DNA of 64,000 bases from Candidatus Aminicenantes bacterium (GTDB lineage: Bacteria; Acidobacteriota; Aminicenantia; UBA2199). The notes under the pieces were generated by a model that was given only the letters and a program-made list of their open reading frames with translations, ran no database searches and was not told the DNA's origin. The stretch covers positions 218,685-282,684 of the forward strand of contig CAVSZS010000005.1 in NCBI GenBank assembly GCA_963732485.1. Reading direction: 5' to 3'. Below, piece by piece: positions 2,597-60,130 of the stretch. How positions within the stretch are numbered: position 1 is the stretch's first letter; each line of letters opens with the position of its first letter. The translations under genes and the position numbers were made by a program.

Positions 2597-3052
2597 CTAG
2601 CGCAAGGTGAAACCCAGCCCCCACGCCGGGGCGGCCCCGGCCGCAGTTGCGCGGACCCGTACGTCGAATTGATAGCCGAAACGGGCCCCGATCTTTTTGA
2701 AACGCGGCCGGTCCAGCGCCAGCTTTTCCAGCGATCCCGGGGCCAGGGTCCTGCCGGCCGTCGACACGTCGAAGAGGGAGACGGTCGCTTGCAGCGCTTC
2801 ACGCCCCGAGCGGTTTTCCAGGCGGAACTCGATGCCTTTCAGCGCCAGCAGCGTTTCGATGCGCAGGCGACAGTTCCCGGCCGTGCCGGACCAGAAGGCA
2901 GGATCGCTGCCGTCGCTTGGCACGGGTTCGAAAACCACGCGGACGGGCGTGTCGCGGGGCCCGGTTAAAAGCCGCGCCTCAGCGCGGTTCAGTCTGGGGA
3001 ACAGGCTGGCCAGGGAGAAAATGCCGAGGAAAACGAGCGCCGTAACGAGGCC
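2597..3052 (-). CDS. Periplasmic-domain ORF lacking its own start; probable frameshifted 3' continuation of the upstream membrane protein
   Basis: The 2597..3244 ORF has a junk-like N-terminal part that overlaps the end of the 2979..5054 ORF in another frame. From PGLVTALVFLGIFSLASLF (TM helix) onward it looks protein-like (RVVFEPVPSDGSD..., FGYQFDVRV). No in-frame ATG lies in the credible part. Confidence 0.3.
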   Translation of the reverse strand, partial: GLVTALVFLGIFSLASLFPRLNRAEARLLTGPRDTPVRVVFEPVPSDGSDPAFWSGTAGNCRLRIETLLALKGIEFRLENRSGREALQATVSLFDVSTAGRTLAPGSLEKLALDRPRFKKIGARFGYQFDVRVRATAAGAAPAWGLGFTLR

Positions 3053-4847
3053 GGGCCGGCGCGGGAGGGGCGCGCAAGGCTCGCGGGCGCCAGGGGAGCA
3101 GCGCCAGCACGACCAGCAGCAGGAAGGCCGCCAGGAATATCGTGTTGGGCAGGTAACCCTGGTTGTCGACCTTGATATAGGAGGGCAGCAGCGCCGGCAG
3201 GTGGATGCGGCTGTTGCTCCATTCCTGGAACAAGCGGCCGGCACGGATCAGGGTATCGTGGGTGGTCGGCTGGTAGAGGGTGAAGGGCGCCAGCGCCTGA
3301 TAGGCGGTGACGAAGAGCGGGTACAGGGGAAGGATGAGCACGGCCCTGCGCATGGACCGATTGCGGCTTTCGCGGTAATAGATCACGGCGAACATCATCA
3401 GGGCCCAGGCCGCAGGCGCCAGGTAGCGTCCCTGGGGGCAATAGCCGGCGCGGATGGTGGAGAAGGCGTGGTTGAGGATGAACAACCCGGCCGGCAGGGC
3501 AACGAGCAGGTGCAAGCGGTAGCGCCGGAAATTCTTCAGGGCCAGCAGCAGCCCGGGAAAGGCGAAGAAGTAAAAAGGATTGTACGGCAGCAATCCGTCA
3601 CGCTGGTCAAAGAAATAATCGAGCAGGGTCTCCCAGCGCGCCTGCAGCGGGATCTTTCTCAAAATGGTATCGACGAGCGCCTGCGACTGTTCGGGATTGA
3701 GCATGCCATAATAGATGGAGTTGGGGGAGAAACTGCCGTAGGCCGTGTACAGGTACAAGAAGAAGAGGGCCTGAAAGAGCAGCGGAAAGACAAGCAGCAG
3801 CAGGGCCCGGCGAAACTGCTTTCTCCACAGCCAATAGCCGCAAAAGCCAATGGTGATCGGGTAAATGAAGAGGGCGTACTTGACTCCCCAGAATATGGAA
3901 CTGCCCAGCAGCAGGCCGGCCCAGAGGCAGCGGCTGTCCTGGCGGCGGCATTTGAAAAGCAGGATATAGAGGGCGCCAAGCACCAGCAGCATGGCCTGGA
4001 CCTCGGGGAAAATATGGAAGGAGTAGAAAAAGACCGGGGCGCCCAGGCTGAAGACCAGCGTGGCGAAAAAGGCCAGGCTGCGCGAACGCCAGAGCCGCAA
4101 GCCGAACAGGTAGGCCAGCACGGCCAGCAGGGCGCCGAACAGCCCCAGGTAGGCGCGGAGCAGAAAATAGAGCAGCGGCGGCGATAGTTTGAAAAAAAAG
4201 AAAGGGGCCACGGTCAGCGCCGCGCCGGGCAGGTGGTAGGAATAGATCTTCTTGTAGCCCTTGCCCCAGGTGCCGTGGGCGGGGAGCTTCCTGACGTCGA
4301 GAAATTCCTTGTAGCCGTCGCGGTAATACTGGTTGAAGACGTTGAGGTCTCCGTCGCGGGCCAGGGACTGGCCGATGGCCAGGTAATGCGGCTCGTCGCC
4401 CACCAGGGCCACTCCCCGCTGCGTCAGCAGGGCGGCGGCCAGGACGAACAGCAGTTCCGCGCCCAGGAAAATGGCCAGCATCCTTTTTTTCAGGGACAGG
4501 GCATTGAAACGGCGCAGGAATTTCAGCGGCCAGCGCCGCTCCCGGGCCAGGATGTACAGGGCGAAGATCGCCGCCAGCAGCGACAGGTTGCGGATGCGCA
4601 AGGAGAGGTCGAGGCGATCCCAGTAGAACAGGCGCAGCGGCCAGGCCAGCAGGCCAGCGGCAAAGGGAACGAAACAGGCCCGGCAGGAGAATGCCGGCGA
4701 CGGCAGCGCCCGCCGGCGGATGGTGAACAAAAAAAGCAGGAGCAACGGCAGCAGCCAGGGGGCCCCGGCGGGGCGCAAGGCGATCAGCGAGGCGAAGCCG
4801 GCCAGGATGGCCAGGTCGATGACCGGGGAAAGCTGTTCTTGCCGCAT
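2979..4847 (-). CDS. Polytopic membrane protein, possible GT-C fold glycosyltransferase (ArnT/PMT-like)
   Basis: More than 12 predicted TM helices. A loop motif VGDEPHYLAIGQSLARDGDLNVF resembles the DE-containing first periplasmic loop of GT39/GT83 enzymes. The upstream part of the 691-aa ORF overlaps the neighbouring gene, so the start is placed at the MRQEQLSPV Met. The C-terminal 40 aa are low complexity, so the true end may lie in the 2597 frame. Confidence 0.4.
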   Translation of the reverse strand: MRQEQLSPVIDLAILAGFASLIALRPAGAPWLLPLLLLFLFTIRRRALPSPAFSCRACFVPFAAGLLAWPLRLFYWDRLDLSLRIRNLSLLAAIFALYILARERRWPLKFLRRFNALSLKKRMLAIFLGAELLFVLAAALLTQRGVALVGDEPHYLAIGQSLARDGDLNVFNQYYRDGYKEFLDVRKLPAHGTWGKGYKKIYSYHLPGAALTVAPFFFFKLSPPLLYFLLRAYLGLFGALLAVLAYLFGLRLWRSRSLAFFATLVFSLGAPVFFYSFHIFPEVQAMLLVLGALYILLFKCRRQDSRCLWAGLLLGSSIFWGVKYALFIYPITIGFCGYWLWRKQFRRALLLLVFPLLFQALFFLYLYTAYGSFSPNSIYYGMLNPEQSQALVDTILRKIPLQARWETLLDYFFDQRDGLLPYNPFYFFAFPGLLLALKNFRRYRLHLLVALPAGLFILNHAFSTIRAGYCPQGRYLAPAAWALMMFAVIYYRESRNRSMRRAVLILPLYPLFVTAYQALAPFTLYQPTTHDTLIRAGRLFQEWSNSRIHLPALLPSYIKVDNQGYLPNTIFLAAFLLLVVLALLPWRPRALRAPPAPARPRYGARFPRHFLPGQPVPQTEPR

Positions 4848-4861
4848 GGGACGGCCGGGCC

Positions 4862-6832
4862 TCAGATGAGCCTTTCCTCGATGGCCTGGGCCAGGTCGAT
4901 GGTCTTCATCCCCTCGCGGCCGGTCTCGGCGATGGCGTCGTGGAACATGATGGAGCAGAAGGGGCATGAGGTGACGACGGTGTCGGCCCCGGTTTTCTCC
5001 GCCTGCTCCAGCCGGCAATGGCTGATGCGCTTGCCGCTCTTTTCCTCTTTCCACATGCCGCCGCCGCCGGCGCCGCAGCAGAAGCTGGTCTTCCTGTTGG
5101 CCGCCATCTCCCGGGGGCGCGATCCGCTCAGGCTGCGCAGGACCTGGCGCGGCTGCTCATAGACCTGGTTGTAGCGGCCGAGGTAGCAGGGGTCGTGGTA
5201 GGTGAGCGGCGCTCCCGCAAGCGGGGCGACGCGGATGCGGCCCTGGGCCAGGAGCTCGTGCAGCAGCTCGCTGTGGTGCAGCACGGTGTAGACGCCGCCC
5301 AGCGCGGGATATTCGTTCTTCAGCACGTGGCAGCCGTGCGGGCAGGCGCTGACGATCCTTTTGAACTTGTAGCGGCCCAGCGTTTCGATGTTCTGCCGCG
5401 CCTGCATCTGGAAGAGGTATTCCATGCCGCTGCGCCGCGCCGGGTCGCCGCAGCATCCTTCCTCGTTGCCGAGGATGGCGAAATCGCAGCCGGCGCGCTG
5501 CAGGATCTTCACCAGCGAGCGGCTGATCTTTTGCGAGTGCTGGTCGTAGGAGCCGGCGCAGCCCACCCAGAGCAGGATGTCGGTCTCGCCCTTGTCGGCC
5601 AGCAGCGGCACCTGCAGGTCCTTGGCCCAGTCGCCGCGCGTGTCGGCGTTCAAGCCCCAGGGATTGCCCTGGTTCTCCAGGCCGCGGTACAGGGCCTGGA
5701 ATTCCTCGGGGAACCTGGATTCCATCAGCACCCCGTACTGGCGCATGCCCATGATCTTGGCGATGTGCTCGTTGAGCATCGGACAGACCTCCATGCAGGC
5801 GCCGCAGGTGGTGCAGTCCCATACCTCTTCCTCGCTCACCACTTCGCCGAGAAGCTTTTTGAGGCCAACCGGGTCGTTGCGCAGCTGGCTTTCCGAATCC
5901 AGCAGGTGGTGCTTCAGCTTGTCCAGCAGGGACTTGGGCGACAGGGCCTTGCCCGACTGGAAGGCCGGGCAGACATCGTCGCAGCGCCCGCACTCGGCGC
6001 AGGAGAAGAGGTCGAGCAGGTCCTTGCGCGTCAGGTCGGTCAGCTGCGGGGTGCCGAACTTCTCCTGCTCCTCCAGGTTGACCAAGGGGATCTCGGCCTT
6101 GACGCCCAGGTTCTTGAACCACAGGTTGAGCGGGCCGGCCAGAAGATGCAGATGCTTGGAATACATAATGAAGACGCCGAAGGCCATGATGACCAGGATG
6201 TGCAGCCACCAGAGTGACTTCAGCCAGAAGCGGACGGCAACCGCGGAGATGGCGGAAGCCGGCGGCAGCAGAAGGGCCGATGCCCAGTTGGCCAGGAAAT
6301 CGCCCCGAATCGCCCCCAGGGAATAGGCCTTGAACGCTTCATAGAAAATGAAGCTGACCATGAGGATGAGGATGAAACTCAGCACGGTCAGTGACTGCCA
6401 GGAGGGGCGCTCCAGGCTTTTGACGCGGACGATGTAGCGACGCACAAAGAAATAGAACACGGCCAGGATGATCAGCGCGGCGAACAGATTGGCCGCGAAA
6501 AGCAGCAGTGAGTTGAGCGTGCCGTGGCCGAACAGGCTGAAGCCGTCGACGAATCCCTCGGCGACGTGGTTGAGGGTGACCCCCATGAAAACCAGGAAAC
6601 CCCAGAAAATGAAGCCGTGAAAAAATCCGGTGACCGGCCTTTGCGCAATGACCGGGGTCTGCAGGAACACGCGATAGACCATTTCCCACAAGCGCCGCAG
6701 CGGGCGATCGCAGCGGGCGACCTTTTGTCCGCAGGAAATCAGGCGGTATTTCCTGAGGAATTCTTTACCTGCCAGGCCCAGGGCCAGGGCGGCGGCGGCG
6801 ACAAAAAGGATCTTCTCGATGATCGAAAGCAT
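4862..6832 (-). CDS. Membrane-bound Fe-S oxidoreductase: NarI/HdrE-like cytochrome-b membrane domain fused to an HdrD/DsrK/GlpC-like subunit with two ferredoxin motifs and two CCG domains
   Basis: The N-terminus has about 5 TM helices with conserved His. Two ferredoxin motifs are present (CAECGRCDDVCP and CTTCGACMEVCP), plus two Cys-rich CCG domains (CAGSYD..CCGDP; CPHGCH..DPCYLGR..CCGAGGGG). Confidence 0.65.
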   Translation of the reverse strand: MLSIIEKILFVAAAALALGLAGKEFLRKYRLISCGQKVARCDRPLRRLWEMVYRVFLQTPVIAQRPVTGFFHGFIFWGFLVFMGVTLNHVAEGFVDGFSLFGHGTLNSLLLFAANLFAALIILAVFYFFVRRYIVRVKSLERPSWQSLTVLSFILILMVSFIFYEAFKAYSLGAIRGDFLANWASALLLPPASAISAVAVRFWLKSLWWLHILVIMAFGVFIMYSKHLHLLAGPLNLWFKNLGVKAEIPLVNLEEQEKFGTPQLTDLTRKDLLDLFSCAECGRCDDVCPAFQSGKALSPKSLLDKLKHHLLDSESQLRNDPVGLKKLLGEVVSEEEVWDCTTCGACMEVCPMLNEHIAKIMGMRQYGVLMESRFPEEFQALYRGLENQGNPWGLNADTRGDWAKDLQVPLLADKGETDILLWVGCAGSYDQHSQKISRSLVKILQRAGCDFAILGNEEGCCGDPARRSGMEYLFQMQARQNIETLGRYKFKRIVSACPHGCHVLKNEYPALGGVYTVLHHSELLHELLAQGRIRVAPLAGAPLTYHDPCYLGRYNQVYEQPRQVLRSLSGSRPREMAANRKTSFCCGAGGGGMWKEEKSGKRISHCRLEQAEKTGADTVVTSCPFCSIMFHDAIAETGREGMKTIDLAQAIEERLI

Positions 6833-6901
6833 GGCGGCCTCCTCGTAAGCGCTTGCTATTTTCGTGGTCCCCGTGGTTTCTGGCGGCGGGGGCCGGCATG
6901 G

Positions 6902-7477
6902 TCACTCGTCCTTCAGCCAGGCGAAATCGGGAAAAAACGGCCTTTCCAGGTCGAGATGGCCGGCCAGGGTCTTGCTTTCATTGCCGCCGATGAGGAACTT
7001 CACTTTCTTGATCTCGCGGAAATTGTAGCAGATATTATCGACTATGAAATAAATGAATTCCAGCTCCGCCGAAGTGCCGCCGGGAAAGGCGCTGGCCAGG
7101 GGCTCGGTAAAATCCAGCAGCAACATCTCGCGGGCTCCCAGGTAATGCAGGCTGCGCAACTGCACGCCGCCCGGCACCGGGGTGATATGGCCCGTGTCGC
7201 CGGCCAGCAGCAGGGCGATGAATTTTTTGTACAGCTCCTCGCGGATCTCGGGGACCTCGATCTCGCGGTAGACCGGCTGCAGGTACTGCGATGTTTCGCT
7301 GAGGAAGAAAAGCTTCACCTTGATGAACTCGGCGATGCCGCCGCCCTTGTCGACCTCGCGGTTCAGCAGCTCGGGCTCGAAGCCGGCCGGCTTTTTGCGC
7401 AGCAGCAGGACGGCGATCAGCAGGACTGCCAGCGTGGCGGCCGCGAGCACCAGGATCGTGCGCGTTTTCTTGGTCAT
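6902..7477 (-). CDS. GerMN domain-containing protein (membrane-anchored)
   Basis: 191 aa with an N-terminal TM anchor and GerMN-like sequence features. Its stop overlaps the amiC start (ATGA), which is a common amiC-gerM arrangement. Confidence 0.5.
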   Translation of the reverse strand: MTKKTRTILVLAAATLAVLLIAVLLLRKKPAGFEPELLNREVDKGGGIAEFIKVKLFFLSETSQYLQPVYREIEVPEIREELYKKFIALLLAGDTGHITPVPGGVQLRSLHYLGAREMLLLDFTEPLASAFPGGTSAELEFIYFIVDNICYNFREIKKVKFLIGGNESKTLAGHLDLERPFFPDFAWLKDE

Positions 7478-8628
7478 TTCAGGAGGCTATTGTAATAATA
7501 GATGAACTTGCTGATGCCGTTGTAAATGGCCATGGCGACCTTGTCCAGGAAATCCTCGTTCTGCAGTTTCTTCTCTTCACTGGCATTGGAGATGAAGACG
7601 GCCTCGATAAGGACGGCGGGCATGGCGGTGCGCATCAGCACCCGGAAGGGAGCCTGCTTGACGCCGCGGTCGCGCGTGCCCAGAAGCTCGTTCAGCTCAT
7701 TCTGGATGTATTCGGCCAGCTTGCTCGACTCGCGGATATGCTCGGTTTGGGCCATGTTCCAGAGAATCATCTTCAACTCGTCGTTCTGGATGGCCTCGCC
7801 CGGATCCTCCTTGTTCTGGTTCTCCTTCTGCGCCAGCTCCAGCGCTTCCGGGTCGGTGGCCTGCAGACTGACGAAAAAGGTCTCCGAGCCGTATGCCGAC
7901 TTGCGGAAGGAAGAGTTGACATGGATGGAAACGAACATCTGCGCCAGCTGGTTGTTGGCGATGGAAGCCCGGGTATTGAGCGAGACCTCGCTGTCCTTGT
8001 CGCGGGTCATGATGACGCGCAGGCCGGTCTTGGACTCGATCAGCTTCTTCAGCTTCAGGCTGATCTTCAGGGTGACGTTCTTTTCCTGCAGTTTGGAGCG
8101 GCCTACGGCTCCCAGGTCCTCCCCGCCGTGGCCGGGATCGATGCAGATCGTCTCGATGGGCTTGGGCTTTGTCACCGGCTGCGGTTCTTCCCGGACAGGA
8201 GGCGGAATTTTTTCGTCAACCGCCGGGACGGGGGGAGGCGGAGCCGGCGCCTTTGCGCTTTTGACCAGGTCGAACACCACGCGGAACGGTTTTTCCAGGA
8301 CAAAGTTCTTGCGCACCGCCGCCGCTCCCTTGTAGTGGACGGTGAGCACGCTTTCGTTGCCCTGGTACTCGCAGGTCACCCGCTCCAGCAGCTGCGAGTT
8401 GGGCACGGCGAGCGACGGCGTGCGGAATTCGGCGCGGCCGGCCAGGCGCATTTCCAGCCGGTCGGGACGGTCCTGCACCTTGTAGGTGAAGGAGCGGTCG
8501 GATTCGAAGACGATGCGCGTGTATCCATCGTGGTCAAACGAGCGGAAATCGATCCCGAGAGAGATGAGGAGCAGGGGAGCGACCAGGATGGCTACGGAAA
8601 ATATGCCGGCCTTTATGCTTTTTTTCAT
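7474..8628 (-). CDS. N-acetylmuramoyl-L-alanine amidase with N-terminal AMIN domain (AmiC-like)
   Basis: Signal peptide, AMIN domain, Pro-rich linker (PAPPPPVPAVDEKIPPPV), and an Amidase_3 catalytic domain (ICIDPGHGGEDLGA..., SIHVNS, ETFF). Confidence 0.85.
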   Translation of the reverse strand: MKKSIKAGIFSVAILVAPLLLISLGIDFRSFDHDGYTRIVFESDRSFTYKVQDRPDRLEMRLAGRAEFRTPSLAVPNSQLLERVTCEYQGNESVLTVHYKGAAAVRKNFVLEKPFRVVFDLVKSAKAPAPPPPVPAVDEKIPPPVREEPQPVTKPKPIETICIDPGHGGEDLGAVGRSKLQEKNVTLKISLKLKKLIESKTGLRVIMTRDKDSEVSLNTRASIANNQLAQMFVSIHVNSSFRKSAYGSETFFVSLQATDPEALELAQKENQNKEDPGEAIQNDELKMILWNMAQTEHIRESSKLAEYIQNELNELLGTRDRGVKQAPFRVLMRTAMPAVLIEAVFISNASEEKKLQNEDFLDKVAMAIYNGISKFIYYYNSLLK

Positions 8629-8649
8629 GGGGCTGGTTTGAAAGGCAAG

Positions 8650-8992
8650 TGGAGGCGGCGGGAATCGAACCCGCGTCCAATTAAGAGTCCATTAGAGATT
8701 CTACGGAAGTAGTTTGTTTTCAGTACGCCTGGCGGCCGTTAAAACAAACAAAATGAACCGCCTGCGGCCCTCTTTAAGTTTCGCTTCGCAGGACAGGAGG
8801 CGCTCCCTGCGACGCTAGCCCGCTAAGTGACGCCCTGGCCCTCCCGCGGGCGGGGAAAACCAGGACGGCAACGTATTATTTACGCTGCGAGTGCAAAGTT
8901 GTTTGCGGTTATTTTTTTGAGCAGTTTTGTGAGCTACTCGGCTCAGTCCGCCTCTCTAACTTCGTCAAAACTGTCGAAACCTTTACGCCCCC
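8650..8992 (-). ncRNA. ssrA: tmRNA (SsrA)
   Basis: On the minus strand the 5' end is GGGGGCGUAAAGGUUUCGACAG, the tmRNA consensus. The 3' end has a T-arm GGGUUCGAUUCC and an acceptor strand CGCCUCC-A that gives a G3:U70 pair (Ala identity). CCA is not encoded. An internal tag reading frame GCA AAC AAC UUU GCA CUC GCA GCG UAA at 8906..8880 encodes the tag (A)ANNFALAA. Confidence 0.85.
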
Positions 8993-9003
8993 AGCCTGGG
9001 GAA

Positions 9004-9080
9004 TGGCGGGGCCGACGAGACTCGAACTCGCGACCTCATGCGTGACAGGCATGCGTTCTAACCAACTGAACTACGACCCC
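9004..9080 (-). tRNA. tRNA-Asp (GTC)
   Basis: Minus-strand sequence GGGGTCGTAGTTCAGTTGGTTAGAACGCATGCCTGTCACGCATGAGGTCGCGAGTTCGAGTCTCGTCGGCCCCGCCA folds as a cloverleaf with anticodon GTC and an encoded CCA. Confidence 0.9.
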
Positions 9081-9099
9081 GCGCCATGTATGCAAAGCC

Positions 9100-9172
9100 T
9101 GGGCGGTAGAGGGCTTGAACCTCTGACACCCGGCGTGTAAAACCGATGCTCTACCAGCTGAGCTAACCGCCC
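9100..9172 (-). tRNA. tRNA-Val (TAC)
   Basis: Minus-strand sequence GGGCGGTTAGCTCAGCTGGTAGAGCATCGGTTTTACACGCCGGGTGTCAGAGGTTCAAGCCCTCTACCGCCCA folds as a cloverleaf with anticodon TAC. CCA is not encoded. Confidence 0.9.
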
Positions 9173-9215
9173 AACCCAAAGACTATTTATATAATAAAAT
9201 CGCCCATATGTCAAG

Positions 9216-9246
9216 TAAAAACGGCGGGACAACCGTTGTCCCGCCG
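9216..9246 (-). terminator. Rho-independent terminator downstream of the CsgG-like gene
   Basis: Minus-strand hairpin GGCGGGACAAC-GG-GTTGTCCCGCC followed by UUUUU. Confidence 0.6.
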
Positions 9247-9262
9247 TTCTCCAAGCGTCCCT

Positions 9263-9985
9263 TTAGTCCAGGTCGATCGAATCCTTGGTCTTTTTCTTGC
9301 GCTTTTCGTCCATCTCGTTGAATTTGTCCATGCAGCCGGCGTCCTCGCCCTCCACCATGGAGCATTCCAGGTATTCGGCGATGTAGAGGATGCAGGCGCG
9401 GATGGCCTTGCCGGTCGGGGTTTTCTTGTAGCTCTCGCCGCCGACCGAGAAGTTGCGCAGGCTGAGGCCGGCTCCCAGGGCAGAGCCCTTGGCGCTGGCT
9501 TCGATGGTGCGGGCGTTGGTGATCTCGCCGGTCTCGGTGTCGATGACCTTCAGGTCCACGGCGATGTAGGCCTTGTCCTTGCCGCCGCCCAGGGAGAGTC
9601 CCTTGAAGCGGACGCCGCCTTTCTTGCCCGAGGTGTTCTCCTCGTATGCGGACACGGTCGCCGCGACCAGGTACTGGGCCCCTTTCAGCTTCTTCATCTG
9701 CACCTTGGTCTTGTTGCTGACCCGTCCCGAGGCGCTCAGATCCTGTTCGCCGAGCACGGCGTCGATCTCTTTCCGCTCCAGCACGCTGAAGGCCTTGGTG
9801 CTCACCAATTCGGAAGCCAGCATGTCCTGCAGGTCGCTGGCCACGGAGCCGCTCCACCAGCCGGCGGCGGTCTGGTTGGTGAAACGCAGCACGCCGAGGC
9901 GGATCTTTTCCTTGGCCGCCAGAGGCTGGGAGACCAGTGTCAGCAGCAGCGCCACGGCCAGAAATGATAACAGCAATTTCTTCAT
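9263..9985 (-). CDS. CsgG/HfaB-family secretion or periplasmic assembly protein
   Basis: Signal peptide, then a CsgG-like N-terminal region (IRLGVLRFTNQT..SDLQDMLASELVSTKAFSVLERKEIDAVLGEQDLSASG). The C-terminal tail is charged and Cys-containing. Confidence 0.6.
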   Translation of the reverse strand: MKKLLLSFLAVALLLTLVSQPLAAKEKIRLGVLRFTNQTAAGWWSGSVASDLQDMLASELVSTKAFSVLERKEIDAVLGEQDLSASGRVSNKTKVQMKKLKGAQYLVAATVSAYEENTSGKKGGVRFKGLSLGGGKDKAYIAVDLKVIDTETGEITNARTIEASAKGSALGAGLSLRNFSVGGESYKKTPTGKAIRACILYIAEYLECSMVEGEDAGCMDKFNEMDEKRKKKTKDSIDLD

Positions 9986-10037
9986 TTGTCCTCCTGATAT
10001 TTCAGCTTATCTTACACCGTTATCAAGGCAAATTCAA

Positions 10038-11078
10038 CTATGGGAGGCCGGCTGCCCGCGTGATCTTCCGGATGCGGCAGGTCCAGCTCGGGATCACCCC
10101 CGGGATGCGGGTGGCCAGGGCGGCAACCGCCGGGCAGACGGCGCAGCGTTGCAGGTCGTCGCAGAGGCTGCAAAGAACCTTTTTTTCGCTGAAAAAATAG
10201 TCTTGGCGCAGCTCGGCATAGTTGGCGGCAATGGCGGCTATGGATTTTGCCGGGCGGGAGACGAATTCATCGAGCGTGCCCAGGCAGTATTTTGCGTAAT
10301 CCGGGTTCGCTGGAGCATGCCCCAGCAGGTCGTAGAACAGGGTGCAGCCCCAGACCGTGCGGTCGGGAAGCAGCGCCAGCCGGTCGTGGCCGGCCGAGCA
10401 GACGAAAACGCCTGACCTGCCGTCAGCGGCGAAGTTTTCCAGCGGCATCCTGCCGGTCTTTTGCCGCTGTTTTTTTGCCATGGCGGCCAAAAGGCCCAGT
10501 TGCGTTTCCAGGACCGCCAGGTCCTTTTTCGCCCAGGGGACGCACAGGTCCAGGGCGTAGCGCAGCCGGGTGTGGCCCCGGCGCAGCATCTCCTTCATGC
10601 TCGCGGCCAGCAGCGCCGCGGTCCGCGGCGTGAAAACGCTGTTGATGACATACCCCGCCGGGTAAATCCGTTGCAGGTTTTCCAATGCCGCTTCCACGGC
10701 GGCCACGCTGCCGGCGTCGCGTTTTTTCTGGGCCAGGCCATCGTAGCTCAGGAGCAGCTCGAACCGGTGTTTCTTCAAGAATAAAATGTGCTCAGGTTTT
10801 AACAGCGAGCCGTTGCTGGTCAGAGCGAAGCGGAACTTGCCTGCAGAGTTTTTAGAGGCATACGCGACGGTCTTTTTGATCAGCGGCCAGCTCAGGAGCG
10901 GTTCGCCTCCATAGAAGCCAAGTTGCGTTTCTCTGGCCAGTCGGGGCTGCAGGAGATCCAGGAACGCGGCAATATCTTCAAAGCGCAGCGTGTTTTTTCC
11001 CCGGGGTTGCGGGCAATAGGGGCAGGAAAAATTGCATGTGTCGCTCAGGACCAGGGTCAAAGAGGAGATCTCCCGCAT
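10038..11078 (-). CDS. Radical SAM enzyme with C-terminal SPASM domain (peptide/protein-modifying maturase-like, anSME-like)
   Basis: CxxxCxxC motif (CNFSCPYC) near the N-terminus, and a C-terminal cluster of 9 Cys (CSAG, WGC, KYC, CSLCDD, CAVCP, WTC) typical of SPASM auxiliary clusters. Confidence 0.8.
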   Translation of the reverse strand: MREISSLTLVLSDTCNFSCPYCPQPRGKNTLRFEDIAAFLDLLQPRLARETQLGFYGGEPLLSWPLIKKTVAYASKNSAGKFRFALTSNGSLLKPEHILFLKKHRFELLLSYDGLAQKKRDAGSVAAVEAALENLQRIYPAGYVINSVFTPRTAALLAASMKEMLRRGHTRLRYALDLCVPWAKKDLAVLETQLGLLAAMAKKQRQKTGRMPLENFAADGRSGVFVCSAGHDRLALLPDRTVWGCTLFYDLLGHAPANPDYAKYCLGTLDEFVSRPAKSIAAIAANYAELRQDYFFSEKKVLCSLCDDLQRCAVCPAVAALATRIPGVIPSWTCRIRKITRAAGLP

Positions 11079-11217
11079 GGCAGGGCCATTCTAGCAAGAG
11101 GCGCACATTCCTGCAATCCTTGTCTTGGACTGGTGGAACAGTATCCGCGGTCGCAGGTTTGTTGAAATAAATCAGTTTTTAAAATAGAATCGTTGCATAT
11201 CAATACGGAGGTAGATA

Positions 11218-11418
11218 ATGGACATAAAAAAAACCAACATGAACCTGCTCCTGGGCAAGATCAGGACCTATCTTGACACGCAGCCCGAAGCGAAAAAAAA
11301 GGGGAAACGGTTCATCGAATCTGAAAAGGCGCTGGCCAAGCTGGAACAGGTTTTCGCCGACAAAAAGGGCATGGTCAAAAAGGCACCCTGCAAGCTCACC
11401 CAAAGTGCCCTCGACTGA
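11218..11418 (+). CDS. Small Lys-rich hypothetical protein (66 aa), divergent from the rSAM gene
   Basis: Strong SD (GGAGG) 8 nt upstream of the ATG. It lies in an AT-rich island (11100..11460) unusual for this GC-rich locus. No recognisable family. Confidence 0.35.
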   Translation: MDIKKTNMNLLLGKIRTYLDTQPEAKKKGKRFIESEKALAKLEQVFADKKGMVKKAPCKLTQSALD

Positions 11419-11456
11419 ACCCTAGCAATCCCCCCGGTCAGTCGCCCGTCTTTCAG

Positions 11457-14400
11457 TTGTTCGCAACAATGAAATTAATCTTCTCGTTTGCTATTCTGCT
11501 CTGCCTGTTACCGGTTTGTTTGCTTGCCGCCGGTGATCCGCGAAATGCAGCAAGCCGCCACGTCCTGGACGTCTGGAAAAGCGAGCGCGGGCTGCCCAGC
11601 AATTCCATTCCTGCTTTGACGCCTGACCGCTCCGGGTATTTATGGCTCGGCACCCAGGACGGGCTGGTCCGTTTCGACGGCAGGAGTTTCACTCTGTTCG
11701 CCAGGGCGAACACTCCGGCCTTCCGTGACGATTTTATCAGGGCGCTCTATTTGGATCGCAGGGGAACATTATGGATCGGATCGTACCTGGGCGATCTGCT
11801 CAGCCTGAGCCATGGAAAATTCCGCAGGCATCAGTTCGGCAAGCGTGATATCTCCCGCCCCATTTATTGCCTGGCCGAAGATCGAAAGAGCAACTTGTGG
11901 ATCGGGACGAATTCCGGGCTTTTTTATCGCCCGGCCGGCGACAAGGATCGTTTTTTTGCGATCTCCGGCTTCGCGGGAAAAATGATCAAGGGCCTCGTGG
12001 AAGATGGCTCGGGCCGATTGTGGGTGGCAACGGCAACCAGCGGCTTGTATCGCCTGGAGCTGCGCCGCTGGCGGCATTTTCCGCTGAACGGCAAAGGGAT
12101 GGAGGCCGACATCACTACCCTCTGTCTCTCTCGTGACGACAGAGTTTGGATCGGCACCCGGGACGGACTTTACGGGATGCAGGGAGAGAACGTGTCCCGC
12201 CTCATCCTGGGCAAGGGGTTGAGCAATATTATCATCTGCCTGCGTGAAGACCGGCGCGGCGTGCTCTGGGCCGGGACCGAGAACGGCCTGTATCGCATCG
12301 CCAAGCAAAAAGCGGGCATGGCGGCAGACGCCCGGGCTACAGCCGCTGGTTTCATCTATTCCATTGGCGAGGATCGCGAAGGTTCGCTGTGGGTCGGGAC
12401 CCTGGGCGGCGGGCTGATCCAGATACGAGATGCGCCAATCACTTTTTATGCGAACCCGCCAGGGCCCGGGAATGGAATGATCTTCTGCCTGAAGGAAGAT
12501 GGATCCGGCGCCATGTGGAGCGGGGGCGCCGCGGGCTACTTGGGGCGCTGCGACGACGACCGTTTCCGGGAAGTCGCCTTGCCCTCCGGGAATCGGGGCG
12601 CTAACGTCCAGGCCCTGGAGCTGGACAGGGCGGGTTCTCTTTGGATAGGCACTTCGGCAGGGCTGCTGCGCTTTCAGGGCGGCGCATTCCAAAGCGTTCC
12701 CCGGCTCTTTTCCCGGGAAGACATCGATGTGCGCAGCATCTTGAGCGATCGCCGGGACCGCTTGTGGGTGGCGGGTTGGGGATACGGCCTGGCCTGCCGT
12801 TCCGCGGACGGAAAAAGCGAGTTGTATACCGTTGCCTCGGGACTCGGCGATGACCGCATCAATTGCCTCCTGGAGGACCAACAGGGAAATTTGTGGATCG
12901 GCAGTGAATCGGGTGTCCGCGTCGGCAGGTTTGAGAAGGGCATGGCTTTTCGTCCGCGGCTGGCACTCGCCGGCTGCGAGGCCGTGTCGGCTTTCGAGGA
13001 CAAAGACGGTGTCATATGGATCGGCACGTACAATTACGGCCTGAAGGTTCACAAGGCCGGCCGCTGGGGTTCGCTGACCGTCGATCAGGGGCTTTTCGAC
13101 AACCGGGTATATGCCATTCAGGAAGATGCCGGCGGTTACCTCTGGTTTTCCAGCGAACGCGGCATCTTCAAGGCAAAAAAAACAGAATTGGAAAATGCGG
13201 CCTTTGATCCGCGGCAAAGGATTCACGGCCGGCTTTTCGATGAAAGCGACGGCTTGAGCAGCCGGATATGCAACAACGGAAGTCCCGCGGGCTGGAAGGA
13301 CAAGAGCGAACGAATGTGGTTCGCCACCCTGAAGGGAGTGGCCATGGTCGATCCGCTGATCACGTTGCGGAATGAAATGGCGCCCCCGGTGCTGCTGGAA
13401 GATGTCGTGGTCGATCACCGCAGCCTGCCGCTAGCGGGCTCTCGCGCCGCGACAACGCTGCGTCTGGCGGCGGGCAGCAAGCGCTTCGAGCTCAAGTACA
13501 CGGCACTGAGCTTCATCCGTTCCGACAGGGTCGAATTCAAGTACAAGCTCGAAGGCTATGACAAGGAGTGGGCTTCCGCCGGCAGCCGCCGCGAGGCGTT
13601 CTATAACGACCTGCGCCCCGGACGCTACAACTTCCGCGTGATCGCCGCCAACGCCGACGGGGTCTGGAACATGGCCGGGGCCTCCTTCGCTTTTTTCCTG
13701 AAGCCGTTCGTCTACCAGACCTGGTGGTTCATGGTCCTGGCCGCCCTGGCCTTCGCGGTCCTTTCGGCGCTGTCGTGGCAGCTCCTGAAAAAATACCTGC
13801 ATGCCGTCACCTTCTGGAAGAAAAAGACGCACCTCGGCCATTTCAAGATCCTGGAGCCCATCGGCACGGGCGGCATGGCCATGGTGTACAAGGCGCAGGA
13901 TATTCTGGACAAGAAGCGCATCGTGGCCCTCAAGGTGCTGAGGGAGGAAAATTTCCACGACGAGCTGCAGAAAAAGCGCTTCCAGCACGAGTCGCTGATC
14001 ACCGAGCAGCTGGACCACCCGCATATCGTGCGCATCTTCGAGCGCGGCGAGACCGATGATTGCCTGTATATCGCCATGGAGCTGCTGCACGGGCGGCCGC
14101 TGGCCCGGCTCATGCGCGAGGAAGGAAAGCAGGAGACGGCCGTGGCGCTGGACATCCTGCTGCAGGTGGTTGACGCCCTGCGCGCCATCCATGGCCAGAA
14201 CATCGTCCACCGCGACCTCAAGCCGGAGAACATCATGATCAGCGAGCGGCGCGGCCGGCCCCACTACGTCACGCTGCTCGATTTCGGCCTGGCCATCACC
14301 CCGGCCCAGTCGCGGCTGACCGTATCGGGCGTGGTCATCGGCACCGTGCGCTACCTGCCGCCGGAACGGATCAGCGACGGCATCTCTTCAGCGGCCGGGG

Positions 14401-14675
14401 ACATTTATTCGGCCGGCATCATCCTCTACGAGATGCTGACCGGCTCCAAGCCCTTCTGGTCGGAGGCGACCGGCGAGGTGATCCACCGCATCCTGGAAAC
14501 CTACCCCCTCGCCGCCCGCGTGATCAACCCCGCCATACCCCGCGAGCTGGAAGCGCTGATACAGGCCATGATCGACAAGGACCCGGCGCGGCGGCCGCTG
14601 CTGGCCACGGTCGAGAAGGAACTGCTGCGCCTGGCAGCGGGGCTTCCGCTCCCAGAAGAAAACAGGGAGGGCTGA
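11457..14675 (+). CDS. Membrane Ser/Thr protein kinase with periplasmic two-component-regulator beta-propeller (Reg_prop) repeats and Y_Y_Y domain
   Basis: Signal peptide, then many W/GL-containing Reg_prop repeats (LWIGTxxGL..). The Y_Y_Y-like region (FKYKLEGYDKEW) is followed by a TM helix (WWFMVLAALAFAVLSAL). A Hanks kinase follows (GxGxxG GTGGMAMVYKA, VALK, HRDLKPENIM, DFGLA, APE-like PPER). Confidence 0.8.
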   Translation: MFATMKLIFSFAILLCLLPVCLLAAGDPRNAASRHVLDVWKSERGLPSNSIPALTPDRSGYLWLGTQDGLVRFDGRSFTLFARANTPAFRDDFIRALYLDRRGTLWIGSYLGDLLSLSHGKFRRHQFGKRDISRPIYCLAEDRKSNLWIGTNSGLFYRPAGDKDRFFAISGFAGKMIKGLVEDGSGRLWVATATSGLYRLELRRWRHFPLNGKGMEADITTLCLSRDDRVWIGTRDGLYGMQGENVSRLILGKGLSNIIICLREDRRGVLWAGTENGLYRIAKQKAGMAADARATAAGFIYSIGEDREGSLWVGTLGGGLIQIRDAPITFYANPPGPGNGMIFCLKEDGSGAMWSGGAAGYLGRCDDDRFREVALPSGNRGANVQALELDRAGSLWIGTSAGLLRFQGGAFQSVPRLFSREDIDVRSILSDRRDRLWVAGWGYGLACRSADGKSELYTVASGLGDDRINCLLEDQQGNLWIGSESGVRVGRFEKGMAFRPRLALAGCEAVSAFEDKDGVIWIGTYNYGLKVHKAGRWGSLTVDQGLFDNRVYAIQEDAGGYLWFSSERGIFKAKKTELENAAFDPRQRIHGRLFDESDGLSSRICNNGSPAGWKDKSERMWFATLKGVAMVDPLITLRNEMAPPVLLEDVVVDHRSLPLAGSRAATTLRLAAGSKRFELKYTALSFIRSDRVEFKYKLEGYDKEWASAGSRREAFYNDLRPGRYNFRVIAANADGVWNMAGASFAFFLKPFVYQTWWFMVLAALAFAVLSALSWQLLKKYLHAVTFWKKKTHLGHFKILEPIGTGGMAMVYKAQDILDKKRIVALKVLREENFHDELQKKRFQHESLITEQLDHPHIVRIFERGETDDCLYIAMELLHGRPLARLMREEGKQETAVALDILLQVVDALRAIHGQNIVHRDLKPENIMISERRGRPHYVTLLDFGLAITPAQSRLTVSGVVIGTVRYLPPERISDGISSAAGDIYSAGIILYEMLTGSKPFWSEATGEVIHRILETYPLAARVINPAIPRELEALIQAMIDKDPARRPLLATVEKELLRLAAGLPLPEENREG

Positions 14676-29246: not shown

Positions 29247-29276
29247 TTGACAACCTGTATTTATATATATTATTAT
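29247..29276 (+). promoter_or_regulatory. Candidate mraZ promoter (TTGACA ... TATTAT)
   Basis: TTGACA at 29247-52 and TATTAT at 29271-76 with an 18-nt spacer. It conflicts with the upstream ATG at 29275, so the true start is more likely the ATG at 29287. Confidence 0.35.
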
Positions 29277-29277
29277 G

Positions 29278-41306: not shown

Positions 41307-41315
41307 GAGGGACAC

Positions 41316-42542
41316 ATGGACGACAACGACATCAAGATCACTTTTGGCCGCGAAAAGAAACGCGGGGCGGTGCTCAAGGTCATCGGCGTGGGCGGCGCCG
41401 GGGGCAACGCGGTCAACCGCATGATCGAGGAGGACCTGAAGGGCGTGGAGTTCATCGCCGTGAACACCGACCTGCAGGTGCTGTCGACCATCACGAAGCC
41501 GGCTTTGCAGCTGCAGATCGGTGACAAGATCACCAAGGGGCTGGGAGCGGGATCGAACCCCGAGATCGGCGAGCAGGCGGCCCTGGAGGACACGGGCCAG
41601 ATCATCGAGGTCCTGGAGGGGGCGCACATGGTGTTCATCACCGCCGGCATGGGCGGCGGCACCGGCACCGGCGCCGCGCCGGTCATCGCCAACCACGCGT
41701 CGACCATGGGCATTCTGACCGTGGCCGTGGTCAGCAAGCCCTTCCTCTTCGAGAAGGAGCGCAGGATGCGCGTGGCCGAGGACGGCATCCGCAAGCTGAA
41801 GGAGAACGTCGATGCCATCATCGTCATTCCCAACCAGAAGCTGCTCGAGCTCGGCGACGCCAATATCACCTACAAGAACGCCTACAAAAAGGCCGACGAA
41901 GTCCTGCTGCAGGCCGTGCGCGGCATCGCCGACATCATCTCCTCCACCGGCGTGCAGAACGTCGATTTCGCCGACGTCAAGGCCACCATGGCCATCCGCG
42001 GCGTCACCCTGATGGGCACCGGCGAAGCCAAGGGCGACAACCGCGCCGAAGAGGCCGCCAACCGCGCCCTGAACTCGCCGCTGCTGGACAACCAGTCGAT
42101 CGGCGGCGCCACCGGCATCCTGTACAACATCACCGCCTCGGCCGGCCTGACCATGAGCGAGATCGAAAAGATATCCGAGCTGATCACGCGCAATGCCGAC
42201 GCCGACGCCACCATCAAATTCGGCGTCATCGAGGACGCGGACGCCGGCGATACCCTGCGCGTGACGGTGATCGCCACCGGCTTCAAGGAAGGGCGCCACG
42301 AAGCCCAGGGACGCGCCAAGGCGCCGACCCCCACCTATGTTCCCATCGAGCCGGCCTACCGCCAGCCGACGCCGCAGGCGCAGATGTTTCTCGGCCAGGG
42401 CCGCCCGGGAAGCTCGGGGGTCGACCTGCGCAACTACGTGAATGACGGCAATATGCCCAACATGACCCACGGCCCCGAGAACTTCGAGGACCCGCTGGAC
42501 GTGCCGACCTTCCAGCGACTGAATCCGATCAAAAAGAAATAG
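41316..42542 (+). CDS. ftsZ: Cell division GTPase FtsZ
   Basis: Tubulin signature GGGTGTGAAP, and the GVGGAGGNAVNRM motif. Confidence 0.95.
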   Translation: MDDNDIKITFGREKKRGAVLKVIGVGGAGGNAVNRMIEEDLKGVEFIAVNTDLQVLSTITKPALQLQIGDKITKGLGAGSNPEIGEQAALEDTGQIIEVLEGAHMVFITAGMGGGTGTGAAPVIANHASTMGILTVAVVSKPFLFEKERRMRVAEDGIRKLKENVDAIIVIPNQKLLELGDANITYKNAYKKADEVLLQAVRGIADIISSTGVQNVDFADVKATMAIRGVTLMGTGEAKGDNRAEEAANRALNSPLLDNQSIGGATGILYNITASAGLTMSEIEKISELITRNADADATIKFGVIEDADAGDTLRVTVIATGFKEGRHEAQGRAKAPTPTYVPIEPAYRQPTPQAQMFLGQGRPGSSGVDLRNYVNDGNMPNMTHGPENFEDPLDVPTFQRLNPIKKK

Positions 42543-57380: not shown

Positions 57381-57381
57381 G

Positions 57382-58327
57382 ATGTTCGCCCCCCTGGCCG
57401 CCTGGCTGCGCCGGCAACAGATCCGCTTCAGCGAGAACGCGGCCATTGCCCCGCACCTCTATTTCCGCATCGGCGGCACGGTAAGCCTGCTGGTTATTCC
57501 CGCGACCGCGGACGAACGGCTGGCTGTCTTGCGCGAGCTCGCCGCGGCCGGTACATCCCGGCCTGGTCATCGGCGGCGGCTCCAACATCGCCTTCGCCGA
57601 CGGGCTGACGCGGGCCGCCGTCGTGCTGGCGCCTGTTCCCGCGCCGCCGGCCCCGCCGCTCGCGGCGGCGGACGGTCGCTCGCTGCAGGTCGACGGCGGC
57701 ATGCGCAACCAGGCGCTGCTCTCCTGGTGCGCGGCCAACGGCGCCGGCGGGCTCGAGTTTCTTTCCGGCATTCCCGGCACCCTGGGCGGGGCGGCCGCCG
57801 TCAATGCCGGCGCCTTCGGAGGCTCCATGGCCGACGTGCTGCTGGGGGCCGATATCGTCGACGAGAGGGGAGAGGTGCGCGCCGTGGACGCCGGCTACTT
57901 CTCCTTCCGCTACCGCGACTCGCGTTTCAAGCTCGGCAGCGAGGCCCTGCTGGCCCTGCGCCTGGCCGTCACTCCCGGGGACGAGGCGCTGATCGCCCGG
58001 AAAATCCGCGACAACCTGGAGTATCGCGTGAAGCGCCATCCTTCCTATCGCCTGGCCTCGGCCGGCTGTTTTTTCAAAAACCCGCTGTCCGGGGGCGTCA
58101 AGACCTCGGCCGGAAAGCTGATCGAGGAAAGCGGCCTGAAGAACACGGTGCTCGGGGACCTGGCCGTGGCCGCCGAGCACGCGAACTTTCTGCTCAACCG
58201 CGGCAGCGGCACCTTTGCCGACCTGCAGCGCCTCGAAGAGAAAATACGCGCCGCGGTGGCCGCGCGCACGGGAATCGTCCTGGAAAGGGAAGTGATCTAT
58301 GTTTCAGAGGACGGAAAGAAGTACTAG
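57382..58327 (+). pseudogene. murB: UDP-N-acetylenolpyruvoylglucosamine reductase (murB) interrupted by a +1 frameshift near 57550-57560
   Basis: Frame 1 encodes a MurB N-terminus (..FRIGGTVSLLVIPATADERLAVLRELAAAG). The next frame continues with PGLVIGGGSNIAFADG, and the 234-aa ORF (57623..58327) is the MurB C-terminal domain. The switch is at a TCCCGGCC run. Confidence 0.75.
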
Positions 58328-58606
58328 TTCGATCTCTTAGTGGTAGTGATAGTGGTTGTGATAGCCAGAGAAGAATGAATTCCAATGGCGGTGTCAATAA
58401 ATGAGATCGGTTGAAGGTAAACGGTTTACGGTGGACGGTCAGAAAAAGGAACACTAAGACTTAAATCCCAAATCCCAAGCACCAAATTCCAAATAAACTT
58501 CAAATTCCAATGACCCAATGACCCAAACGAAAACGCTGCCAAGGCAGGGTTTCCTTTTTAACTTTTCACTTTTCACGTTTCACTTTTCACATATTCTATT
58601 TAAGCT

Positions 58607-58678: not shown

Positions 58679-59317
58679 CTATTTGACCGCCCTGCGGCCG
58701 TCGCTTGAGCGGGTGGCCATCGTCCCGGGCTTGACTGAGTCGCCCGAAGCCAGGCGCGTCGCGGTCCAGGTGGCGCTGGTGATGTCCTTGTTGCCGACGG
58801 TCAGGCCGGCGAAGGTGGCGCTGCCCGTCATCTTGTCCTTGCCGTCGAACTTGCCGCTGATCTGGATGTCCCACGTATTGTATTCGATGGTGACGTCCTT
58901 GCCGGAGAGCGTGTAGGTGCCGGTGTCGGAGAAGTTGTCGATGAAGGTGCCGCTCTTCCTGTCGCCGCTGAAGATCAGTGTCCAGACCCAGGTGTGGGCC
59001 GGCGACGTGGAGGTGAAACTGAAATCCCATTTGCCGACAATCTCGTATTTGGTCTTCAGGACTACCAGAACCAGGACGGCGGCGATGGCGCCGACGGCGA
59101 CAATGCCGATGACGATGGGCAGGATGCTCTTTTTCCCTGGCTGGGTGCTGGCGCTCCCTTCTTCCTCAACAAAACCTGGGGTCTCCCCCGCCGCCTCAAT
59201 TTCCGTGCCGCCCTGGCCGGGAGCCTGGTCGGCGCGCAACGGCATGGTCGACGCATGCAGCAGCGCAAGGAAAGTAAAAGCCACAAACAAGGCGATCGTT
59301 TTTTTGTGATTTTTCAT
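58679..59317 (-). CDS. Hypothetical secreted/membrane-anchored protein
   Basis: Signal peptide, a Gly/Glu-rich spacer, a TM helix (ILPIVIGIVAVGAIAAVLVLVVL) and a beta-rich C-terminal domain. No family recognised. Confidence 0.45.
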   Translation of the reverse strand: MKNHKKTIALFVAFTFLALLHASTMPLRADQAPGQGGTEIEAAGETPGFVEEEGSASTQPGKKSILPIVIGIVAVGAIAAVLVLVVLKTKYEIVGKWDFSFTSTSPAHTWVWTLIFSGDRKSGTFIDNFSDTGTYTLSGKDVTIEYNTWDIQISGKFDGKDKMTGSATFAGLTVGNKDITSATWTATRLASGDSVKPGTMATRSSDGRRAVK

Positions 59318-59394
59318 GATGGCAACTCCTCCTGTACGGCACTATATTAAATAGAAATATAATAAAGTCAACCGTATATCCTCCGAGCCGGCGC

Positions 59395-60130
59395 CTACAG
59401 GCGCGATTGGGCCAGGGTGATCGCCGTCACCCTGGCGCCGCCTTTTTTCAGCGCCGCGGCGCACTTGCGCAGGGTGGTGCCGGTGGTGGTCACGTCGTCG
59501 ATGAGCAGGATGCTCTTGCCGGCGACCTTGTTCCCGGGCGGCCAGGGCGAAGGCGCCGTCCAGGTTGGCGTGGCGCTGCGCCTGGCTCAGGCCCACCTGC
59601 GGCCCCGTGCTTTTCGTTTTGGCCAGAACCCGGGGCCAGAAAGCGATCCCCAGTTCGCGGGCCAGCACCACGCCCATGGCCCGCACCGGCTGGAAGCCAT
59701 GCCGGCGGTTGCGGTCGGCCGGAACCGGCACCACGGCGTCGAAGGGGCCGGGAAGCCTGGTGCGGACCGTCTCCAGGCACAGCTTCGCCAGCACGTGCTT
59801 CAGCGGCTCGATCTCCCCGTACTTGTAGAGGATGATGACCTGGCGCAGGGTCCCTTCGTAGGCGGCGCAGGAGAGGTGGCGGTCGAACGGCGGCGCCTGC
59901 AGCAGGCAGGCGCCGCAGGCATCGACCCCGTCGGGGACAAACTTGCCGCAAATGCGGCAGGCGTGGTCCGCGGCCGGAACGACCCGCTCCCGGCAATCCC
60001 GGCAGATGATCTTTTCCCGCGCCAGTACCAGGTCGTGACCGCAGATGCGGCAGCATGGCCGGTAAAGCCCTGTCCGCGCCAGTTGCAGGAGGGCGCCGCC
60101 GGCCCGGCCGAGCGCTTTTCCTATAGACAT
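59395..60130 (-). pseudogene. comF: ComF-family protein (double zinc ribbon + phosphoribosyltransferase domain) interrupted by a 1-nt frameshift near 59533-59540
   Basis: The 331-aa frame gives the zinc ribbons (CRICGHDL..CRDC..CRICGKF..CGAC) and ..NLDGAFALAA. The neighbouring frame then gives the canonical PRTase end GKSILLIDDVTTTGTTLRKCAAALKKGGARVTAITLAQSRL*. The switch is at GCCGCCCGGG. Confidence 0.7.

Follow-up and report, generated by a model that had tools for sequence, protein, structure and literature searches.

Genes split between two reading frames

The window, that is the whole 64-kb stretch of DNA analysed, carries approximately 53 genes, three of which are divided between two frames: murB (UDP-N-acetylenolpyruvoylglucosamine reductase), a ComFC-type comF, and a gene specifying a multi-pass membrane protein that is conserved in the Aminicenantes (Table 1). 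The initial annotation had called three frameshifts, and each was confirmed as a change of frame on the same strand at the place given for it, with no stop or start structure. All three run in the same direction, the downstream frame being the upstream frame +1. Since each lesion amounts to a net gain of one base (mod 3), a gene caller sees two pieces. No other frame switches or truncated domains were found among the ~53 genes of the window.

Table 1. Split genes, lesions and neighbouring CCCGG copies (window coordinates)
Feature	Coordinates	Strand	Basis
Membrane-protein gene (split, two frames)	2597..4847	-	translations, profile search, homologues
CCCGG near membrane-protein lesion (plus strand CCGGG)	3051..3055	-	alignment to L084, ungapped
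Membrane-protein lesion, net -5 nt relative to L084	3062..3077 (approx.)	-	DNA alignment
murB (split, two frames)	57382..58330	+	translations, Pfam, 314-aa homologues
murB lesion, one extra A, GGT[A]CAT	57553..57553	+	DNA alignment to L081 and L086
CCCGG 3 nt from murB lesion	57557..57561	+	conserved, ungapped in relatives
comF (split, two frames)	59395..60130	-	translations, Pfam, homologues
comF lesion, one extra C, GCCGCC[C]GGGAAC on the coding strand (G of plus-strand GGG)	59536..59538	-	DNA alignment

The N-terminal 57 codons of murB lie in the frame of nucleotide 57382 and the remainder in that of 57383, while intact orthologues are single 314-aa proteins. As sequenced, the locus presents a 340-aa ORF (57382-58404) without a Pfam match, and the product would lose the GGGSN part of the FAD domain. 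Removal of one base yields a protein with FAD_binding_4 (PF01565; residues 36-167) and MurB_C (PF02873; residues 204-307) domains, the former covering positions 3-137 of the 139 in the profile and extending across the junction. This repaired MurB shows 93% identity to a 314-aa homolog (P0001) over 100% of the length of the latter, and only in this form does it have the two domains in the order of its orthologues, with which it is then colinear.

In comF the upstream frame continues to a stop at 59342, and a possible alternative start lies at 60175. Intact orthologues are again single proteins, of 244-259 aa. The product as sequenced keeps DZR_2 alone; with one base removed it possesses DZR_2 and Pribosyltran domains, the second spanning the junction, and is 94% identical to its homolog P0243. 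The hallmarks of ComF/ComFC proteins, an N-terminal double zinc ribbon and a C-terminal phosphoribosyltransferase domain with LLIDDVxTTG, are thus found together only after the repair. The initial annotation had proposed, as a check, to take out a single C or G and see whether full-length MurB and ComF return; both are indeed restored by loss of one base, but the base concerned in murB is A57553, which is neither.

Intact homologues of the membrane protein are single polypeptides of 744-751 aa, and here too a full-length product returns once one base is taken out. Its upstream frame ends at a stop at 2979-2981, and the other frame holds the last transmembrane helix together with a C-terminal domain of ~150 aa. 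No Pfam family scored above threshold for this protein, and more than 100 homologues likewise lack a Pfam domain; its PMT/GT-C-like hit (PMT, PF02366; E=0.0083, 16.2 bits, below the 22.7-bit cut-off) is weak.

The lesions at the DNA level

The three lesions are of three kinds: an added A off any homopolymer (murB), an added C in a short C-run (comF), and a complex change of net -5 nt (membrane protein). At the murB site a relative with 94.9% nucleotide identity (L081) reads GGCCGGT-CATCCCGG, and L086 agrees. Removal of the A gives AAAGHPGLVIGGG, identical at the junction to P0001, which reads AGHPGLV there; the T before it (57552) may just as well be the surplus one. The neighbouring CCCGG encodes the conserved Pro-Gly of HPGLVIGGG. 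Deletion of a C from this motif was considered as a repair and rejected, since it removes the universally conserved proline (GTSGLV versus GHPGLV). A scan of JGI metagenomes for same-species haplotypes of the murB junction found none.

The extra C of comF lies inside CCCGGG (59533-59538), making this the sole lesion of the three within the motif. Relatives have FALAAGNKVAGK at the junction, L085 reading GCCGCC-GGGAAC and L086 TTCCC-GGCGG at the site of the lesion.

For the membrane protein an intact contig of the same species (L084) was available, with 98.3% nucleotide identity over 2259 nt of the gene, and the lesion is the only indel by which the two differ. It sits in a hypervariable GC-rich linker coding for Arg, Pro and Ala, which has 8-14 residues among relatives and contains short direct repeats. 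On its simplest reading, drawn from the alignment, the lesion would combine an in-frame length difference with the gain of a single C in a CCCC run (3067-3070, GGGG on the plus strand) situated 12 nt upstream of the CCCGG. The latter encodes Pro-Gly and is already in the correct downstream frame; L084 has CTCGG there, a substitution and not an indel, and the downstream frame is right from codon CTC/CCG CGC CGG onward (PRRPGLV versus PRRLGLV in P0242). Repair by deleting a C of CCCGG was discarded here as well, as it would lose the Arg-Arg that is conserved ahead of the final transmembrane helix. When JGI metagenomes were scanned for linker haplotypes, the L084 contig was recovered again and nothing else.

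Relation to the CCCGG motif

The initial annotation had placed all three junctions on CCCGG. A coding-strand copy does occur near each site, and the comF base lies inside one, but DNA alignment to close relatives moved the other two junctions off the motif, the distances being 0 nt (comF), 3 nt (murB) and 12 nt (membrane protein). A systematic base-calling error specific to CCCGG/CCGG, for example one in which methylation displaces indels by a few bases, would account for this proximity, for the net +1 of every lesion, and for the CCCGGCCT that the membrane-protein and murB sites share. For a motif specified beforehand, the probability that all three sites fall within 12 nt of a copy is 0.0007, or 0.004 when sites are GC-matched. 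The motif was, however, picked after looking. When three GC-matched coding sites were drawn at random, 26-43% of the draws had some 5-mer in common within ±12 to 15 nt, and in 16-25% an 8-mer was shared by at least two of the sites. The 8-mer that the membrane-protein and murB sites share codes for Pro-Gly-Leu in each protein, and relatives conserve it without gaps.

There are 403 copies of the motif (CCCGG/CCGGG) in the 64 kb, 384 of them in coding DNA. Within the window 383 of these 384 are clean, the reverse of what a systematic error would produce. Nor do the ~53 window genes include a C5 or N4 DNA methyltransferase, and CCGG is not avoided there, as it might be under restriction-modification (observed/expected 1.04). 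With one lesion of three inside the motif, lesions of differing kinds and CCGG not depleted, the suggestion of a motif-specific mechanism such as a methylated CCCGG is not supported, and such an error is quite improbable. The neighbouring CCCGG is best explained as a by-product, and not a cause, of GC-rich sequence coding for Pro, Gly, Ala and Arg; in such DNA a shared motif near frameshifts arises easily through chance and the freedom with which junctions can be placed.

Origin of the frameshifts

The lesions are private to this assembly: the murB A is absent from L081 and L086, and the comF C from L085 and L086. The truncated products P0124 and P0245 both come from a single contig of 330,899 bp. 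No second disabling mutation was observed, each downstream part being open to its normal stop in the restored frame. For murB the dN/dS ratio is 0.30 downstream of the lesion and 0.41 upstream, so that no relaxed selection is shown downstream; in comF the three differences downstream give a selection test no power. The part of the membrane-protein gene downstream of its lesion has a ratio of 0.90 (3 synonymous and 7 non-synonymous changes). The same domain in intact pairs has 0.34-0.38, against which 0.90 is not significant; the difference from the upstream part is likewise not significant (Fisher p=0.056), and the domain is intrinsically less constrained.

The step of peptidoglycan synthesis that MurB catalyses is essential, and its gene is normally present in one copy. 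In the same window murC, murD, murE, murF, ftsW, ftsI, ftsQAZ, an amidase and an M23 peptidase are all intact. From the essentiality of murB the initial annotation had argued for artefact over three true pseudogenes, and with private lesions and no further decay this is the best-supported reading. The three frameshifts thus likely arose independently of one another, as sporadic errors that left small indels in the consensus sequence of an Aminicenantes (Acidobacteriota) metagenome-assembled genome (MAG), probably one built from long reads. As judged from these sequence comparisons, they would have originated in sequencing or assembly instead of in the cell, and in the organism itself murB, comF and the gene for the membrane protein are most likely intact.

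Long-read relatives show the same type of error at other positions. L086 (contig_15763, 443 kb) carries ~20 insertions of 1 nt that are private to it over 12 kb of coding sequence, and the murB of L024 (MFD05942.bin.2.108) contains three 1-nt insertions, none of them at a homopolymer. For the MFD-LR MAGs, Nanopore reads alone were assembled with Flye and given a single round of Medaka polishing (PMC12313526), and Nanopore bins below ~40x retain indels that cause frameshifts (PMC9262707). Several observations count against consensus error. The lesions lie off long homopolymers, the classic error sites, and the 6-9 nt runs of the window are clean. A net change of -5 nt is untypical of a single-base error unless genuine differences between strains account for some of it, and comF and the membrane-protein gene, being dispensable in principle, could be genuine pseudogenes.

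An alternative, although an unlikely one, is that genuine frameshift mutations have recently made pseudogenes of one or more of the three genes in the sampled population. Its most plausible candidates would be comF and the membrane-protein gene, neither of which is essential; in the latter a slippage-type deletion in the repetitive GC-rich linker would fit the truly variable length of this region in relatives, its short direct repeats, the -5 nt that is unlike a simple one-base error, and the nominally high dN/dS. Against it stand the private nature of all the lesions, the absence of further decay, the non-significance of that dN/dS, and an essential murB amid an otherwise intact cell-wall pathway. 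Three fresh frameshifts among 53 genes, one of them essential, also far exceed the normal load of pseudogenes. It is highly improbable that the lesions are all real and that MurB, ComF and a conserved envelope protein were recently lost, a loss that would call either for some unknown way around the MurB step or for a lifestyle that is wall-deficient or dependent. The same holds for a weaker variant, in which GC-rich CCCGG contexts coding for Pro-Gly form a true hotspot of +1 insertion.

Programmed +1 ribosomal frameshifting or transcriptional slippage could restore the proteins in vivo, and the same +1 shift is needed in all three genes. Every one of the more than 100 orthologues per gene, and of the relatives at 90-98% nucleotide identity, is however single-frame. 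The frameshift sites are not conserved in orthologues, neither a slippery nor a stall element is conserved, and the sequence context is different at each of the three; this proposal was rejected, its probability being extremely remote.

If consensus error is the cause, the value of the finding is mainly practical, and new biology would follow only should reads prove the lesions real. The annotation of three genes, one of them essential for the cell wall, is then wrong, since it gives them as truncated or as an out-of-frame ORF of 340 aa. Repair or flagging is needed before metabolic conclusions (e.g. 'murB absent') are drawn.

Comparison with known systems

Errors of Nanopore base calling at methylation motifs (Dcm, Dam sites) recur at a large fraction of motif copies and are mostly substitutions. 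The window resembles such cases in having a short GC-rich, CCGG-containing motif near all three lesions, and differs from them in that a single copy out of 384 is hit and two of the lesions fall outside the motif. Bacterial frameshift pseudogenes are likewise conserved genes interrupted by a small indel, whereas here decay has gone no further, an essential gene is among the three, and the lesions are absent from a conspecific contig of 98.3% identity.

Consensus indels of long-read (Nanopore) MAGs, as revealed by IDEEL-type tests for truncated proteins, offer a close likeness to our reading of the window as carrying consensus errors. The window departs from them in having no long homopolymers at the lesions and one site of net -5 nt, and its source platform is one that we infer. 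It agrees with them in its private 1-nt insertions that split conserved genes and in a density of approximately one lesion per 21 kb, and sister assemblies of the clade with Flye-style names (L086, L024) share the error type. Frameshift indels in long-read MAGs are described in the literature as exactly such a problem (PMC9262707, PMC12313526).

Gene content of the window

The window (62.7% G+C) has a dense and ordinary gene map of about 53 genes, established from a codon-usage frame plot and Pfam scans, and the best matches of its proteins are in metagenome-assembled genomes (MAGs) of Candidatus Aminicenantes (Acidobacteriota). Besides the features listed below, it carries valS, a class II ribonucleotide reductase, a large Ser/Thr kinase and transporters.

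Features of the window, with their positions and strands
Feature	Position	Strand	Remarks
MBOAT-family acyltransferase gene	1069-2523		adjoins the membrane-protein gene
Membrane protein	4847 to 2597	-	frame changes between penultimate and last transmembrane helices
tmRNA (tag peptide ANNFALAA), tRNA-Asp(GTC), tRNA-Val(TAC)	8647-9173	-	only long non-coding stretch in the window
1072-aa protein, Reg_prop/Y_Y_Y beta-propeller repeats fused to Ser/Thr kinase domain	11457-14675	+	weak codon-usage signal
dcw cluster mraZ-rsmH-ftsL-ftsI-murE-murF-murD-ftsW-murC-ftsQ-ftsA-ftsZ	29275-42542	+	Pfam scans
512-aa SBBP beta-propeller-repeat protein	46632-48170	-	weak codon-usage signal
murB	start 57382, stop 58328-58330	+	split between two frames
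212-aa ORF between murB and comF	58679-59317	-	no Pfam family

The dcw cluster leaves no space for mraY (murF/murD interval) or murG (ftsW/murC interval), and ddl is absent; these three genes must be located elsewhere in the genome. murB lies 15 kb from the cluster, beside a cyclophilin gene. In the frame plot the codon-usage signal of the two beta-propeller ORFs is clearly below that of the rest of the window, and both could be recent acquisitions or genes of atypical composition. The 212-aa ORF keeps its position and length in contigs of two related genomes (L085, 1165-1803; L086, 6956-7594).

Frame switches in three genes

The three frame switches reported in the initial annotation exist: translation reveals them in murB, comF and the membrane-protein gene, each time in the same direction, the downstream frame being the upstream frame +1. 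The database homologues are single proteins of 314 (MurB), 244-259 (ComF) and 744-751 (membrane protein) amino acids, while the window's own shortened products are represented in the protein collection by P0124 (622 aa) and P0245 (262 aa), both from one contig of 330,899 bp. As had been proposed, removal of one base restores the Pfam domains of MurB (FAD_binding_4 and MurB_C, the former across the junction) and of ComF (DZR_2 and Pribosyltran), but in murB the base is A57553 (or T) and not a C of the CCCGG motif. The frame plot showed no further same-strand frame switch without stop/start structure in the window, and Pfam scans of the ~53 genes revealed no shortened domains in the others. The lesions were placed by aligning the DNA of the closest intact relatives to the window.

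The first frame of murB ends ...LRELAAAG, and the conserved ...PGLVIGGGSNIAF... follows in the next. Contig L081 (Logan ERR12035932; 94.9% identity over 2185 nt) reads GGCCGGT-CATCCCGGCCTGGT against GGCCGGTACATCCCGGCCTGGT in the window, and L086 is the same. The lesion is thus a surplus A at 57553 (alternatively the T beside it), outside any homopolymer; the CCCGG that lies 3 nt further on is conserved and shows no gap. With the A removed the junction gives AAAGHPGLVIGGG, matching AVAGHPGLVIGGG of P0001, an intact homologue of 93% identity. Removing a C of CCCGG, the repair first suggested, would lose a Pro kept in every relative. Owing to the high G+C, the wrong frame stays open past the lesion, for an ORF of 340 codons (57382-58404, plus strand) with no Pfam match; a gene caller may report this as a 340-aa "hypothetical protein", just the first 57 residues of which are MurB.

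On the minus strand comF reads ...NLDGAFALAA, then ...NKVAGKSILLIDDVTTTG... in the next frame. Both L085 (ENA, 90% nucleotide identity) and L086 have GCCGCC-GGGAAC where the window has GCCGCCCGGGAAC: a short C-run inside a CCCGG motif is longer by one C. The repaired product, FALAAGNKVAGK, is the sequence of the intact homologue P0243.

For the membrane protein (site 1), contig L084 (JGI 3300027800) shares 98.3% identity with the window over 2259 nt, which places it in the same species, and its version is intact (751 aa). The sole indel by which the two differ, of net 5 nt, is the gap in GCCTTGCGCGCC---C-C-TCCCGCGCCGG (plus strand, ~3062-3077). From CTC CCG CGC CGG CCC GGC CTC GTT (LPRRPGLV) the downstream frame of the window is the true L084 frame (VPRRLGLV), so the CCCGG at 3051-3055 is read in the correct frame; the lesion is 12 nt upstream of it, and against L084 it shows only a substitution. 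The length of this linker differs between relatives. Most simply, the two strains differ here by an in-frame length change, and the window carries in addition a surplus C in a CCCC run (GGGG on the plus strand, 3067-3070); it may also be a real deletion of 5 nt.

This protein, with many transmembrane helices and a C-terminal domain of ~150 aa past the last one, belongs to a large, well-conserved family (>400 homologues at E<=1e-20), the best-scoring members having ~745 aa and the named ones coming from Aminicenantes or Acidobacteria MAGs. No Pfam family scored above threshold, the weak PMT/GT-C-like match having E=0.008.

The CCCGG motif

The initial annotation had placed all three lesions on a common CCCGG, a coincidence considered unlikely by chance, and had suggested a motif-specific systematic error. 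The placement holds for comF but not for the other two genes. The window contains 403 copies of CCCGG/CCGGG (1 per 159 nt). For a motif named beforehand, three random coding positions would all fall <=12 nt from it with a probability of 0.0007 (0.004 after matching for local G+C); the motif was, however, picked only after looking at the lesions. In simulations with random triples of coding sites (local G+C >=75%), 26-43% of the triples had some 5-mer in common within +-12 to 15 nt, and 16-25% included a pair with a common 8-mer. The 8-mer common to sites 1 and 2, CCCGGCCT, codes for Pro-Gly-Leu in both proteins. Since the error does not recur at the motif (a lesion in one of 384 coding copies), a motif-specific systematic error is not the explanation. 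The window holds no DNA methyltransferase gene, its methyltransferases being RsmH and a small-molecule-type class I enzyme only, and CCGG is not depleted in it (observed/expected 1.04).

Artefact or mutation

On grounds other than this motif, the conclusion of the initial annotation is probably right, and sequence comparison points to assembly artefacts at all three sites. No relative examined, the conspecific L084 included, shares any of the lesions, and none of the three genes has a second disabling change downstream. Nor is this programmed frameshifting, since the site is not conserved. Less in keeping with artefact are the absence of the lesions from the long homopolymers that the window contains, the net -5 nt change at site 1 and the nominal dN/dS of 0.90 downstream of that site (3 synonymous, 7 non-synonymous differences), a contrast that is not significant in a domain intrinsically less constrained (0.34-0.38 in intact pairs vs 0.14-0.24 upstream). 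In favour of artefact, purifying selection acts equally on murB on both sides of its lesion, with dN/dS of 0.41 upstream and 0.30 downstream (19.5 synonymous, 16.5 non-synonymous differences). Without repair, MurB would be missing GGGSN from its FAD domain; the earliest start codon in the correct frame (GTG, 57623) lies past this segment. All other peptidoglycan and division genes of the window are intact. Three recent frameshifts among 53 genes, with an essential gene among those hit, also make an abnormal pseudogene load. True pseudogene status is possible for comF and the membrane-protein gene, and very unlikely for murB.

Comparison with related assemblies

L086 (ENA ERZ25039477, contig_15763, 443 kb; 90-95% identity to window 51-64 kb) is without both window lesions in its overlap (murB, comF). 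It has ~20 private single-base insertions in coding DNA over 12 kb (1-12630), which break an AIR-synthase-like gene, a beta-propeller gene and murB. In contig L024 (MFD05942.bin.2.108; CAVXTN010000005.1, 9000-13500) murB contains three non-homopolymer single-base insertions within 540 nt, jointly frame-restoring, and comF has further breaks. Both are related long-read MAG contigs, and their private insertions lie mostly outside homopolymers. L024 comes from a collection with a single genome for each GTDB species, and its genome presumably serves as species representative despite its errors. The MFD-LR catalogue was built from Nanopore data alone, with Flye as assembler and one round of Medaka polishing (PMC12313526); Nanopore bins below ~40x coverage keep frameshift-causing indels (PMC9262707).

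In analyses of this genome murB, comF and the membrane-protein gene should be treated as intact, or flagged. In type the window lesions (+A, +C, and probably +C again) match the errors in L086 and L024, at far lower density. They present nothing new: frameshifted gene calls are a well-known problem of metagenome assemblies.
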